A stretch of DNA of 32,000 nt, taken from the NCBI RefSeq assembly GCF_020969955.1, contig NZ_JAHDSX010000003.1, positions 30,001 to 62,000 of the forward strand. Reading direction: 5' to 3'. Below are positions 13,733 to 16,859 of the stretch, in pieces. The first letter of the stretch is position 1. Every line of letters begins with the position of its first letter. A model generated the notes under the pieces. The model was not told the origin of the DNA, did not search any database, and saw nothing but the letters and a program-made list of their open reading frames with translations. Made by a program: the position numbers and the translations under genes. The stretch comes from Allobaculum fili (GTDB lineage Bacteria > Bacillota_I > Bacilli_A > Erysipelotrichales > Erysipelotrichaceae).

Positions 13733-15289
13733 TCATCTATTCATACGAGCCTGAATTGTCGAGAGCGAAAATTTGAGACGGCTTTTGTTTTCTCGAAAAT
13801 CATTCCAGGCTGGAAAAGTCATCGGATAGTTTCCACAAAAACGAATTGTTTTTCTCATCTTCCTGGCGATCGGTTTCCAGAGCGGAATTCGTAACCAGAG
13901 GAAAATCGAAAAGAGATCCTCTTTCTGAATTTCCTCTATGGAAGCAGCATCGTCTGAATCTGCGCTTTGCCAGTGCAAATACAGTTTCCAGAGATCCGGG
14001 GCGCGTTTGGCCAGAGCGTTCTGCATCGTTTCGTTTAAAGAAAGGGTCTGTCCGTTCTGCCGTTTTCCAATCAGCATGTACACGAGCGAACGCGCACACT
14101 CTCCGCTCATCTGTTCAGGAGTTTCGATCTCTGCCAGAAGGCGTTCGAGCCGATCTGGAGCGACCGCATCCGGCGTAAGGGCGACCATCTGCGCCATAAG
14201 CTCAAGCGGTTCCTGCCATCCGCTCTGGTCTGGGAGTTCTTCGAGCAGATCGTCCAGCTGCTTCTGCGGGATCAGGCCATACACTAAAAGCTCCAGCATC
14301 GCCTTTGAAAAGCGGATCGAATAGTTCGTATCGTCTGGCAGATGATCCATACAGAAGCCGGCCAGACTGCGATGTTCTTCGCGCAAAGCCGCTTTGGCCG
14401 CCACACTCCACTCCGCCGGGCTCAGTTTGCGCTGCGGGTTTTCTTCCAGAAGTCTGGCATACTGGGCGCACAAAACCGAGGCTTCGGGAAGTCCGTTCGA
14501 CGAGTCGAGCGCATACGCCAGCCGCTCATTTTCGCCTGCCTGGGAAGACATTCCAATCGGCAGCACGAGCATCAATACCGAACAGCACGCGACCAGAAAA
14601 AGGGACAGGATCAGCAGCGCGCTTTTCTTTCGCGATTTCTTAACGGCCTTTTTCATGGCCTTCAACGACGAGAATCGCCGTCTCGGATCGGTACTCAGTG
14701 CTGTCCACGCAATGAGCGAAGGTCCAAACATATGCAGATACAGACGGCCCAACCCGATCTGATCCGCTCGCTCATCCATGCGTGCACCGTCCGCGCCTTC
14801 AGGCGGCAGCGCGTCTTTATTGACGAAGACCGGACGCGTGCTCCCGATCGGCAGACAGGCATTGAAATCGATCAGTACGGCATGTCCGTTGTGGACCAGG
14901 ACGTTGTCGCCTTTCAAATCGAGATACAGATATCCGGCCTGATGCACCTGTTCGATCAGCGCAAGAATTTGAAGGAAGATTTCTTTTTTCGCCTTTCGCG
15001 AGGGGCGTTCGTGCAGCCATTCCTCTAACGAACAGCCCTCAAACCAGGTTTCCACCAGCGTGTGGGCATACAAATCGGATCCATACTCCACTAAAGAAGG
15101 AGTCCACATCGAATCGAGCTTTTCCAGAACGTCTTTTTCCCGTCGCAAAGCGTCCAGAACAACGGAGGGCGCATCGATCGGAACGCTTTTGCGCACGGCT
15201 TTCTTTTGGGAGAGCGGATGCATTACCAGATCGGTCTGGCCATGCGGCGTCTGCTTGAGCGTTTCGATCCAGATCCAGGATTCACTCAT
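13733..15289 (-). CDS. Single-pass membrane protein with N-terminal Hanks-type protein-kinase-like domain (EssB/YukC-like topology), 518 aa
   Basis: Kinase-like motifs: AVRK (beta3 Lys), catalytic loop YLDLKGDN (nt 14903-14920), DFN in place of DFG, PPE in place of APE. The Gly-rich loop is degenerate. TM ALLILSLFLVACCSVLMLVLPIG at residues ~224-246. ~270-aa helical extracytoplasmic domain. 8-nt overlap (ATGAGTGA) with the upstream FHA gene. Confidence 0.75.
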   Translation of the reverse strand: MSESWIWIETLKQTPHGQTDLVMHPLSQKKAVRKSVPIDAPSVVLDALRREKDVLEKLDSMWTPSLVEYGSDLYAHTLVETWFEGCSLEEWLHERPSRKAKKEIFLQILALIEQVHQAGYLYLDLKGDNVLVHNGHAVLIDFNACLPIGSTRPVFVNKDALPPEGADGARMDERADQIGLGRLYLHMFGPSLIAWTALSTDPRRRFSSLKAMKKAVKKSRKKSALLILSLFLVACCSVLMLVLPIGMSSQAGENERLAYALDSSNGLPEASVLCAQYARLLEENPQRKLSPAEWSVAAKAALREEHRSLAGFCMDHLPDDTNYSIRFSKAMLELLVYGLIPQKQLDDLLEELPDQSGWQEPLELMAQMVALTPDAVAPDRLERLLAEIETPEQMSGECARSLVYMLIGKRQNGQTLSLNETMQNALAKRAPDLWKLYLHWQSADSDDAASIEEIQKEDLFSIFLWLRIPLWKPIARKMRKTIRFCGNYPMTFPAWNDFRENKSRLKFSLSTIQARMNR

Positions 15290-16859
15290 GGAAAATCACC
15301 GTCCGGCTGCCCAGCCGAATTTCCATTCCGTCATGAAGGCGCATTTTCCGAATGACCCGCTTTCCGTTCAGCCATGTGCCATTGGTCGATTTCAGATCCT
15401 GGATGTACCACTTTCCCTGCGTATGCGTCAGCCGGGCATGGGTCAGTGAAATCGTGGGATCGATCAGAACGAGGGGACAGTCTGCCCGACGGCCAACAAC
15501 AATGTCCGCTCCCTCCAGGTCCAGCCGCTTCCCTTCCAGATCCAGAAACGCAGGGCACGCCAGTTCTTCCAGCAAAACCGTCGGATTCGCAGGCACTGCT
15601 CCTTTTCTGGATTTGGAAGTCGAAGAATTTCTTTTTGGCGTCATGCTGCGTTCTGGTTTCTGATCCTGCACAGCAGATTCGGATACCTGTTCTTCTCGTT
15701 TTGACAGATCGGGCTGGGATGAAGGATTGAATGCCCCCGAATCGGGCCAGAGCGGACGAGGGGCAAGCGGGCTCTCATGCGGGCTGCCGTAAGGCGTAAG
15801 AAGCGGTTCTTCGCGCACCGAAAGGGCGGAAGGTTCTTCAAGACCGTAAAGCGAAACCGAACCGCCAAAAGGCGTGTTGCTTTCTGGAACGCTGTGAGAT
15901 ATCGGATCGTCTTTTCTCGTTTTCCTTGCTTTCTTCCGTTTTTCTGTTTTCTTCGGATTGGAATCATCGGTTCCTTGCGGATTTGGTTCAAGCTTGAGAA
16001 GATGCGCTTTCTCTTTTGAAGACGTGTCGGAAAAAGGATCGAATGGCAATCCTTCGCTTTCTTCCCGGGAAAAATCAAGCGGGGAAAGCTTTCCGTCAAA
16101 ACTTTCGGGCTTTGCCTTTTCAGCCCGGGGAAACAGAGGAGAGCACGCCGCAAAGGACGTCTTCTCTTCATTCAGAGGATCCGTATTCGTATCCTCTTCT
16201 TCCGACTCGGTCCACACCAGATCGTCCTTTTCTTCCAAACCGCTCATCCCATCGCCGCGAAGCGGATAAAGCGGTTTGGACCGGACATAAGGCGGTATGT
16301 CTTTTTTCAGACAAAATCCGAACAGACGGTTTCTGGACAGAAAAAGCGTTTCAAGCTCCTGGAGAAGAGCATCCGTTTCCAGCCGGCCATTCGCCGCCAG
16401 AAACAGCAGCCCGCAGACGGCGCTCGCTTTCGGATCGAAATAGTCCAGCAGTTCCCGATACAAATGAAGCAGTTCCTCCTGCCGCTTCATCCAGGCTCGA
16501 AAATGAACCGGGGCCCGGACAAAGTAAAACGCGTCACCGCGAAGGGACAGAAAAATCGTTCGGGCGGAAAGCAGAACCGGCTGGCTTTGCATCGCCTTTA
16601 AAACCTGTTCAAGCAATCCATGCAGAAACTGACACGCCAGTCGGGTTTCCAAATGGCTCTGCACGAGAAAATCGTGCAGAGAAATCCGCTCTTCCAGGCT
16701 GTAGTACGCGCTGCAGGAAACAGGATCGAGGCGAATTAAGGAAAGAAAGCTTTCATCCTCCTCATTTTCCATAACCCGCTCGTCATACAGTTCGCGCTCT
16801 TTGACGCGCACCTGCAGGCGATTCGGTCCATAAACAATTTCTGTACATTCCATCAGCAT
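15282..16859 (-). CDS. FHA-domain protein (unknown N-terminal domain, long disordered linker, canonical C-terminal FHA), 525 aa
   Basis: C-terminal VVGRRADCPLVLIDPTISLTHARL...YIQDLKSTNGTWLNGKRV...LHDGMEIRLGSRTVIFHE carries all the conserved FHA phosphothreonine-binding positions (G-R, S-x-x-H, N-G). FHA core is about nt 15285-15506. RBS AAAGGAGAGAG. First gene of the locus. Confidence 0.85.
   Translation of the reverse strand: MLMECTEIVYGPNRLQVRVKERELYDERVMENEEDESFLSLIRLDPVSCSAYYSLEERISLHDFLVQSHLETRLACQFLHGLLEQVLKAMQSQPVLLSARTIFLSLRGDAFYFVRAPVHFRAWMKRQEELLHLYRELLDYFDPKASAVCGLLFLAANGRLETDALLQELETLFLSRNRLFGFCLKKDIPPYVRSKPLYPLRGDGMSGLEEKDDLVWTESEEEDTNTDPLNEEKTSFAACSPLFPRAEKAKPESFDGKLSPLDFSREESEGLPFDPFSDTSSKEKAHLLKLEPNPQGTDDSNPKKTEKRKKARKTRKDDPISHSVPESNTPFGGSVSLYGLEEPSALSVREEPLLTPYGSPHESPLAPRPLWPDSGAFNPSSQPDLSKREEQVSESAVQDQKPERSMTPKRNSSTSKSRKGAVPANPTVLLEELACPAFLDLEGKRLDLEGADIVVGRRADCPLVLIDPTISLTHARLTHTQGKWYIQDLKSTNGTWLNGKRVIRKMRLHDGMEIRLGSRTVIFHE

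Follow-up and report, generated by a model that had tools for sequence, protein, structure and literature searches.

We analysed a 32,000-nucleotide stretch of the Allobaculum fili genome (contig NZ_JAHDSX010000003.1, positions 30,001 to 62,000; hereafter the window), which carries on its minus strand the gene cluster of a compact type VII secretion system (T7SS). The genes form a tight operon in the order FHA adaptor, membrane kinase, 641-amino-acid (aa) protein, EssC-like ATPase, 84-aa protein, two WXG100 proteins, 82-aa protein, 268-aa protein and DUF4176 protein (Table 1). The first two genes are the main subject of this work. The ATG of the kinase gene (15289) overlaps the TGA of the FHA gene, which ends at 15282, by 8 nucleotides (nt), ATGAGTGA, an overlap already recorded in a first-pass annotation of this DNA, and the two genes are translationally coupled; the next gene of the cluster starts no more than 40 nt after the pair.

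We name the components after Garrett, Higginson and Palmer (2024, Microlife 5:uqae013; PMC11217815), who defined the subtypes T7SSc to T7SSj. In their scheme the name TsxD stands for a membrane Ser/Thr kinase that conserves its active site and has an EssB-like topology, present in T7SSc, d, e and j; TsxJ is a DUF6382-FHA protein; and TsxF is a PPM phosphatase, present in T7SSc, e and j. As read from its sequence, the 518-aa protein of the window is a TsxD-class bitopic Hanks-type Ser/Thr kinase, of the non-RD kind and with a degenerate P-loop, and it looks like a core membrane component of a T7SS variant that has no EssB, EsaA or EssA. We are highly confident of the identities of the components, that is, the kinase, the FHA adaptor and the T7SS parts of the cluster. 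The interpretation that we favour goes further, and proposes that the kinase and its TsxJ-class adaptor gate secretion in a phosphorylation-dependent manner.

The membrane kinase and its catalytic residues

The Pfam Pkinase model (PF00069) matched the 518-aa protein with 40.2 bits, against a gathering cut-off of 31.7, and it matched 26 out of 26 members of the family, the best with an E-value of 1e-22. An AlphaFold2 (AF2) model computed from the family alignment had a predicted local distance difference test score (pLDDT) above 90 over approximately residues 10–220. When this model was compared with the PDB using Foldseek, the best matches were S. aureus Stk1 (9ymt, E 5e-11) and PknB (4eqm), and further matches included M. 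tuberculosis PknI (5xka), MELK and CaMKII (E-values from 5e-11 to 3e-9). The top 50 matches were all genuine kinases, and EssB/YukC was absent from them. In addition, a phmmer search against PDB sequences placed YLDLKGDN and DFN in register with HRDIKPDN and DFG of DMPK/MRCK.

According to the AF2 model and the hydropathy profile, the protein is bitopic, as EssB is, with a cytoplasmic kinase-fold domain, one transmembrane (TM) helix and a helical extracytoplasmic domain. The stretch KKAVKKSRKK precedes the TM helix and indicates an N-in topology. PASTA domains are not present in the protein. A profile built on its extracytoplasmic domain (aa 262–445) retrieved 20 proteins among 1.84 billion representatives, of which the full-length ones that we inspected share the architecture of the family. 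The last ~58 residues (about aa 461–518; 13733–13910) are frameshifted with respect to a 99%-identical database protein (P0001), whose own tail the same DNA encodes in another frame; the remaining orthologues share neither of the two tails. The conserved part of the kinase ends near aa 445, and the length of 518 aa is probably not meaningful.

The motifs of the kinase domain are found at aa 31–34 (AVRK), aa 122–129 (YLDLKGDN), aa 141–143 (DFN) and aa 162–164 (PPE). Among the Hanks residues, the protein retains K34 of strand beta3, E51 of helix alphaC, D124, K126 and N129 of the catalytic loop, D141 of the DFG motif, E164 of the APE motif, D176 of helix alphaF and R205 of subdomain XI. All but one of the 30 family members keep K34, E51, L55, D124, K126, N129, D141, F142, E164, D176 and R205. 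As pairwise identity between the kinase domains of these members drops to 24% (range 24–49%), such conservation makes the motifs more than a chance resemblance. The HRD motif is replaced by [YF]-L-D in the 28 members that align at this position and keep the catalytic Asp, the exceptions being P0065 (YVD) and P0059 (HMG). The activation segment, ACLPIGSxRP...LPPE, is unusually invariant across the family. By the three motifs VAIK, HRD and DFG, the protein is not classed as a pseudokinase, and we consider the chance that it has real phosphotransfer activity to be slightly better than even.

The sequence reading of the first-pass annotation was borne out by these analyses. It had located AVRK, D-L-K-G-D-N (nt 14920–14903), DFN and PPE, and had described the Gly-rich loop and the His and Arg of HRD as lost, all of which agrees with the family alignment. 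It had also attributed to the protein an EssB-like topology, and its wording of an EssB position holds in this sense, for topology and not for gene order or homology. Finally, the Pfam, phmmer and Foldseek results place D-L-K-G-D-N and DFN at the catalytic-loop and Mg-binding positions, on which its proposal of a kinase depended.

The FHA adaptor

The adaptor consists of an N-terminal DUF6382-like domain, a disordered linker rich in Ser, Pro and Glu (~aa 200–425) and an FHA domain at the C-terminus, and is a cytoplasmic protein that has no TM helix. The complete set of phosphothreonine (pThr) contact positions that had been ascribed to this FHA domain is present, as GR (aa 456–457), S-L-T-H (aa 471–474) and N-G (aa 493–494). 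Across all orthologues the R, S, H and N do not vary, unlike the Gly of NG. Of the NCBIfam models, FhaB/FipA Rv0019c matched the domain best (E 6e-23, below the cut-off).

Upstream of the FHA domain, the adaptor contains the motif T427-V-L-L-E, whose Thr is invariant in 9/9 core orthologues and lies at a fixed distance of 29 residues before the GR of the FHA domain. The motif is degenerate (QVTESMPP) only in L051, the locus whose kinase has lost its catalytic residues (see below), a correlation that represents one lineage. A similar motif, T-x-L-hydrophobic-[DEN], is visible in the published alignment of TseJ, TsfJ and TsjJ (Fig. S4 of Garrett et al; PMC11217815). It is plausible that T427 serves as a phospho-acceptor and, in its phosphorylated form, as a pT-x-x-L ligand for the FHA domain. 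We also considered binding of T427 to its own FHA domain in cis and judged this unlikely, since the motif ends up only ~7 residues before strand beta1.

The Pfam model DUF6382 (PF19909) matched the N-terminus of the adaptor with 21–25 bits (24.6–24.8 bits at E 2e-5), under its cut-off of 26.7, and matched eight of the 11 adaptor orthologues at E<=10. The AF2 model of this domain had a pLDDT of 82.6 and a predicted template modelling score (pTM) of 0.82. Its top Foldseek match in the PDB was TraF-N, TraF's N-terminal domain (8cba; E 2e-5, TM-score 0.6), and the remaining matches were all protein kinases. Alignment of the domain with EssB/YukC by hhalign was weak (E 0.009) and brought the catalytic-loop regions into register, and no similarity to the kinase domain of the same locus was found with this program. 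A DUF6382 profile gave one spurious match against PDB sequences and, in Pfam at E<=10, DUF6382 alone. In the alignment of orthologues, residues L61, L79, P94, S105, P117, W123, G150 and L152 are invariant, and no K/E/D/N/D catalytic set is conserved. The model leads us to predict a compact EssB/TraF-like pseudokinase fold without catalytic residues, a fold that is not mentioned for DUF6382 in the literature that we searched. If this holds, it is the FHA adaptor, and not the membrane kinase, that carries the system's EssB-like pseudokinase module.

Distribution and gene order

Members of the kinase family occur only in Allobaculum and related Erysipelotrichaceae; among them are A. mucilyticum strain 128 and Erysipelotrichaceae bacterium RD49, as well as several metagenome-assembled genomes. 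The FHA gene lies directly upstream of the kinase gene in 12/12 related loci that have upstream sequence, in agreement with the co-occurrence that the proposal of a kinase–FHA circuit had called for. Each related locus contains the same cluster with EssC, two WXG100 genes and DUF4176, and the gene order is conserved over seven GTDB species and further metagenomic contigs, including the gene for a 427-aa membrane protein upstream of the cluster. Matches L012–L048 of the genome scan were set aside, as they are unrelated large proteins (~1000 aa) with kinase domains, and match L050 of the EssC search was inspected and is not a comparable cluster.

The other match of the EssC search outside the family that we inspected, a Lachnospiraceae T7SS locus (L049, 10001–24605), was rejected as an orthologous cluster. 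Its kinase is only generically similar (23% identity over 94 aa). The proteins encoded there are an EssC with FHA, YukD, two WXG100 proteins, a VWA-FHA protein, a kinase longer than 700 aa and two PP2C phosphatases. The locus independently exemplifies a set of kinase, phosphatase and FHA within a T7SS, and such modules are common.

Other genes of the cluster

The likely start of the EssC-like ATPase is the ATG at 11808, which gives a protein of 1155 aa (1155–1161 aa over the possible starts). It has a TM region at ~aa 227–275 and only one Walker A motif (GATGSGKS, aa 572). The EssC model TIGR03928 scored 235 bits on it, under the cut-off of that model. Only the D1 ATPase domain aligns with EssC/EccC proteins outside the family, and full-length relatives were found only inside the Allobaculum-type family. 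The N-terminal region gives a weak Pfam FHA match (24.5 bits) and, as had been annotated, is devoid of SxxH; its GR varies among the orthologues, and the FHA-like domain as a whole is poorly conserved even between them.

The 84-aa gene, whose start overlaps the EssC-like stop by 4 nt, had no Pfam match and no BLAST similarity to the YukD-like protein of the Lachnospiraceae locus; a small gene occupies this position after the ATPase (that of YukD/TsxB) in the related loci too. The 641-aa protein has a variable, acidic or Ser-rich N-terminal half, and a conserved C-terminal half with a terminal TM helix followed by RRR. No Pfam or NCBIfam match and no evident N-terminal signal peptide were found for it. 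The 427-aa protein has a helical C-terminal part after its predicted TM helices, and no Pfam family was found for it. As its gene adjoins the cluster in related loci, this polytopic protein may belong to the system as a component that has gone unrecognised. The 82-aa, 268-aa and DUF4176 genes are likely substrate or accessory genes. The 268-aa Gly/Ala-rich protein, encoded after the WXG100 pair and the 82-aa gene and without a family match, is a candidate secreted substrate or toxin.

Elsewhere in the window there are two very large open reading frames (ORFs) on the minus strand, of 887 aa (24326–26989) and 1538 aa (27213–31829). The latter has weak matches to the putative metallopeptidase families DUF6782 and DUF6055.

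Table 1. Cluster genes and their domains, with positions in the window.
Feature	Position	Strand	Evidence or remark
TsxJ-like adaptor gene, 525 aa, first of operon	15282..16859	-	Pfam FHA E 3e-20
DUF6382-like domain, adaptor aa 1-180	16320..16859	-	AF2 and Foldseek
T427-V-L-L motif of adaptor, candidate phospho-acceptor or FHA ligand (pT-x-x-L)	15570..15581	-	Putative function
FHA domain, adaptor aa 434-523	15291..15560	-	R457, S471, H474, N493
TsxD-like bitopic Ser/Thr kinase gene, 518 aa as read	13733..15289	-	Pfam Pkinase
Cytoplasmic kinase domain, aa 1-208	14666..15289	-	Alignment, AF2, Foldseek
D-L-K-G-D-N catalytic-loop codons	14903..14920	-	Aligned with HRDIKPDN of DMPK/MRCK
Single TM helix of kinase, aa 225-243	14561..14617	-	Hydropathy 3.02; AF2 helix aa 209-242
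Extracytoplasmic all-helical domain of kinase, aa 262-445	13955..14506	-	AF2 pLDDT 85-92
641-aa conserved protein	11768..13693	-	Orthologues in all related loci
EssC/TsxC-like FtsK-family ATPase	8341..11826	-	Pfam FtsK_SpoIIIE E 4.5e-22
84-aa gene, YukD/TsxB position	8090..8344	-	Position only
WXG100 protein, 97 aa	7685..7978	-	Pfam WXG100 45.8 bits (cut-off 27.3)
Second WXG100 paralogue, 94 aa	7297..7581	-	Pfam WXG100 33.3 bits (cut-off 27.3)
82-aa protein gene	7118..7366	-	Order kept in related loci
268-aa Gly-rich (Gly/Ala-rich) protein gene	6337..7143	-	Order kept in related loci
DUF4176 protein gene	5908..6276	-	Pfam 86.5 bits, above cut-off
427-aa polytopic membrane protein gene, upstream of cluster	18388..19671	-	Synteny; 5 predicted TM helices

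Proposed phosphorylation-dependent gating and its alternatives

We favour the interpretation that a TsxD-class kinase is coupled to a TsxJ-class adaptor and that secretion is gated in a phospho-dependent manner, and we estimate the probability of this statement as a whole at about 0.5. We infer the following course, from catalysis and substrate to the effect on secretion. The family-specific helical ectodomain would sense an envelope or contact cue, and the kinase would then phosphorylate a Thr on a component of the system, the best candidate being T427-V-L-L of the adaptor. The FHA domain would bind this phospho-Thr in trans, docking or oligomerising the adaptor, whose pseudokinase-like domain might then engage the degenerate FHA-like N-terminal domain of EssC, mirroring the EssB–EssC contact of T7SSb. 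The assembly or the activity of the secretion ATPase would thereby be gated. This specific order of events is tentative, and we hold the odds to be somewhat against it.

Several observations weigh against phospho-dependent gating. The Gly-rich loop of the kinase reads LKQTPHGQT; it has at most one Gly, which is not conserved, and no family member has GxGxxG. Because this loop is absent family-wide and the DFG motif of the family is DFN, ATP binding and catalysis are uncertain. Moreover, the orthologue P0059 (L051, 5539–6957; L052, 3877–5295) carries the replacements D124G, K126Q, N129D and D141N, and reads FLHMGIQLED and LTNFKN where the window kinase has YLYLDLKGDN and LIDFNA. This protein, seen on 10 contigs, is encoded in an intact cluster with an overlapping FHA gene, and retains the other family motifs CLPIGSLRP, LPPE, ADQISLG and RRF. 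Its FHA partner is still canonical, with GR, SxxH and NG retained, and thus the ligand of that FHA domain cannot depend on the cognate kinase.

Further points concern the substrate, the phosphatase and the adaptor. There is no conserved Thr within the kinase itself in the family alignment, and the T427 motif could be purely structural, given its place ~7 residues before FHA strand beta1. We found no PP2C Pfam match among the ORFs of the window, a phmmer search with two PP2C queries had no match in either the window or 14 loci of the family, and the precomputed Pfam annotation of seven related loci (L001–L004 and L051–L053) contains no PP2C. As for the DUF6382 domain, its model was built from a multiple sequence alignment of 5 sequences and was confident in 2/5 models; the alignment was shallow because the word-indexed search with the FHA protein gave four true relatives. 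In addition, sequence-profile searches with this domain gave no significant EssB or TraF match. Finally, we found no experiment on any TsxD or TsxJ protein in the literature searched.

The main rival explanation takes the kinase-like protein to be chiefly a structural hub like EssB/YukC, whose role is independent of phosphotransfer. The retained residues would then serve a nucleotide-dependent conformation or be partly decayed, and the FHA domain would read the marks of another kinase, for instance a housekeeping one of the PrkC/Stk1 type, or bind without phosphate. P0059 is in favour of such a hub, as none of its four catalytic-loop and DFG residues is left while its cluster, FHA gene and other motifs were kept, and so are the family-wide degeneration of the Gly-rich loop, the bitopic topology shared with EssB and the fact that no phosphatase was found at the locus. 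The invariant activation segment, too, suggests a binding surface. However, 29 of the 30 members keep the K, E, D, K, N and D residues together with the regulatory spine at 24–49% identity, a pattern that is difficult to account for without selection for catalysis or, at the least, Mg-ATP binding. Furthermore, the gene for a canonical pThr-reading FHA protein overlaps the kinase gene in every locus, and the kinase-dead lineage is a single case. Overall, we regard a chiefly structural role as unlikely, although it has to be taken seriously.

We likewise hold it to be unlikely that the cluster represents a T7SS subtype not described so far, with the two roles that are fused in EssB divided between a catalytic membrane kinase and a soluble DUF6382-FHA adaptor, and with T-x-L-L as the substrate. 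If this division of roles were true, one orthologous group would capture the change by which a kinase is assumed to have become the pseudokinase EssB, since the family includes the kinase-dead P0059.

The first-pass annotation had instead suggested that the protein may be an EssB that kept its catalytic residues. In an explanation of this kind it would be an ancestral, still catalytic orthologue of EssB/YukC, and canonical EssB would be its degenerate descendant. The topology and the helical extracytoplasmic domain are the same as in EssB, no EssB is encoded in the cluster, a shift from kinase to pseudokinase is seen within the family (P0059), and the sole segment aligned by hhalign puts the catalytic loops in register. 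Nevertheless, there was no YukC (PF10140) match, either at E<=1 for the window protein or at E<=10 in 26 members, and hhalign against S. aureus EssB, with a query sequence nearly identical to 4ANN, gave a probability of 0.2%. The ectodomain profile retrieved no YukC/EssB from the 1.84 billion representatives, the Foldseek top 50 contained genuine kinases without EssB/YukC, and the compact EssB/TraF-like fold is predicted instead for the neighbouring DUF6382 domain. Orthology with EssB is therefore improbable. What stands of the earlier interpretation is a kinase plus FHA module of a T7SS; neither an EssB with retained residues nor a circuit new to T7SS does, as TsxD and TsxJ, and with them the analogy to type VI secretion, were already described by Garrett et al (PMC11217815).

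Least probable is that the pair is a general signalling module, such as one for cell-wall or division control like PknB/FhaA/FipA, which merely adjoins T7SS genes: the FHA domain has FhaB/FipA Rv0019c as its best NCBIfam match and the kinase has Stk1 and PknB as structural neighbours, but the two genes overlap by 8 nt with the next cluster gene at most 40 nt on, the pair was found only in the T7SS cluster in 12/12 loci, PASTA domains are missing, the ectodomain is unique to the family, and DUF6382-FHA proteins are described as T7SS-specific components (PMC11217815).

Comparison with known secretion systems

These findings bear on what turns on type VII secretion in Gram-positive bacteria. The family represents a minimal design, with one kinase, one pThr reader, no phosphatase and an ATPase with a degenerate FHA domain. 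It also includes a natural control in which the kinase is dead, and has one conserved candidate phospho-site. The gut relative A. mucilyticum strain 128, whose complete genome is available, could serve as a model organism.

The principle of the design is not new. A kinase combined with an FHA protein was published in 2024 for other T7SS subtypes, and control of T7SS by threonine phosphorylation was suggested there, with an explicit analogy to the type VI secretion system (T6SS) (PMC11217815). In the literature that we searched, phospho-regulation of T7SS appears as a bioinformatic proposal only, and we found no experimental test of it. We found no paper that pairs Allobaculum with type VII secretion, and the names Allobaculum and Erysipelotrichaceae do not occur in the text and parts of the supplement of Garrett et al.

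The Allobaculum cluster looks like a further T7SS variant, which by composition is nearest to T7SSe and T7SSj. Compared in this way, it shares the A, A2, C, D and J components, a gene in the B position and a C-terminally TM-anchored protein, as well as an FtsK-like ATPase whose N-terminal region is FHA-like; two WXG100 paralogues are common to it and T7SSe. The kinase resembles TsxD in having an N-terminal cytoplasmic kinase domain whose active site is conserved, followed by one TM helix and then a helical ectodomain, and in being clustered with TsxA (WXG100) and TsxC (the EssC-like ATPase). Unlike T7SSc, e and j, the Allobaculum cluster has no PPM/PP2C phosphatase (TsxF) within it or nearby. 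The FHA domains of TsdC, TseC and TsjC keep the pThr-binding residues (PMC11217815), whereas the FHA-like domain of the window ATPase is without them. Compared with T7SSe and T7SSj, this ATPase is also short (1155 aa), has a single Walker A motif and aligns to other EssC proteins over D1 only. The kinase differs from the TsxD proteins of these two subtypes in having no Gly-rich loop and a family-specific ectodomain. Additional differences are the 641-aa protein, which has no recognisable signal peptide or Ig-like matches, the extra conserved 427-aa polytopic membrane protein, and the host clade, Allobaculum/Erysipelotrichaceae.

Like EssB/YukC of T7SSb (PDB 4ANN, 6Z0F, 2YNQ), the kinase is bitopic, with a single TM helix between its cytoplasmic kinase-fold domain and a helical domain outside the cell, and its gene lies together with those for EssC and WXG100 and with a small gene at the YukD position. 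The EssB pseudokinase domain of T7SSb contacts the FHA domains of EssC. The catalytic motifs of EssB are degraded (LDMR, YTFVLAPD, TRG; PMC12599244) and it does not bind ATP, while the window kinase keeps AVRK, YLDLKGDN and DFN, and we found no sequence or profile similarity between the two. The compact EssB/TraF-like fold is predicted here on the DUF6382 domain of the FHA protein, and not on the membrane kinase.

The PpkA/Fha1/PppA pathway of T6SS, and TssL-Fha of Agrobacterium, likewise combine a membrane Ser/Thr kinase that has an extracytoplasmic domain with an FHA protein encoded in the cluster. The proposed logic, in which phospho-Thr-dependent recruitment would gate assembly, is similar by analogy only. 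The machine is unrelated and the host is monoderm; the Allobaculum system also differs in having no cognate phosphatase and in an FHA protein with an additional, predicted pseudokinase-like domain.

Finally, the protein that the predicted DUF6382 domain matches best in structure is TraF of the Gram-positive type IV secretion system (T4SS) of pIP501 (8CBA), a structural homologue of EssB/YukC (PMC13037476). The match is to a compact kinase-like fold of ~195 aa that lacks a catalytic triad. TraF, a bitopic protein, also has a TM helix and a helical C-terminal domain, whereas the DUF6382 domain of the window is soluble and fused to FHA, and identity between the two is 13%. If the predicted pseudokinase fold of DUF6382 is true, it would connect TsxJ with both EssB/YukC and the TraF of conjugative T4SS, and a different protein would count as the EssB equivalent in such systems.

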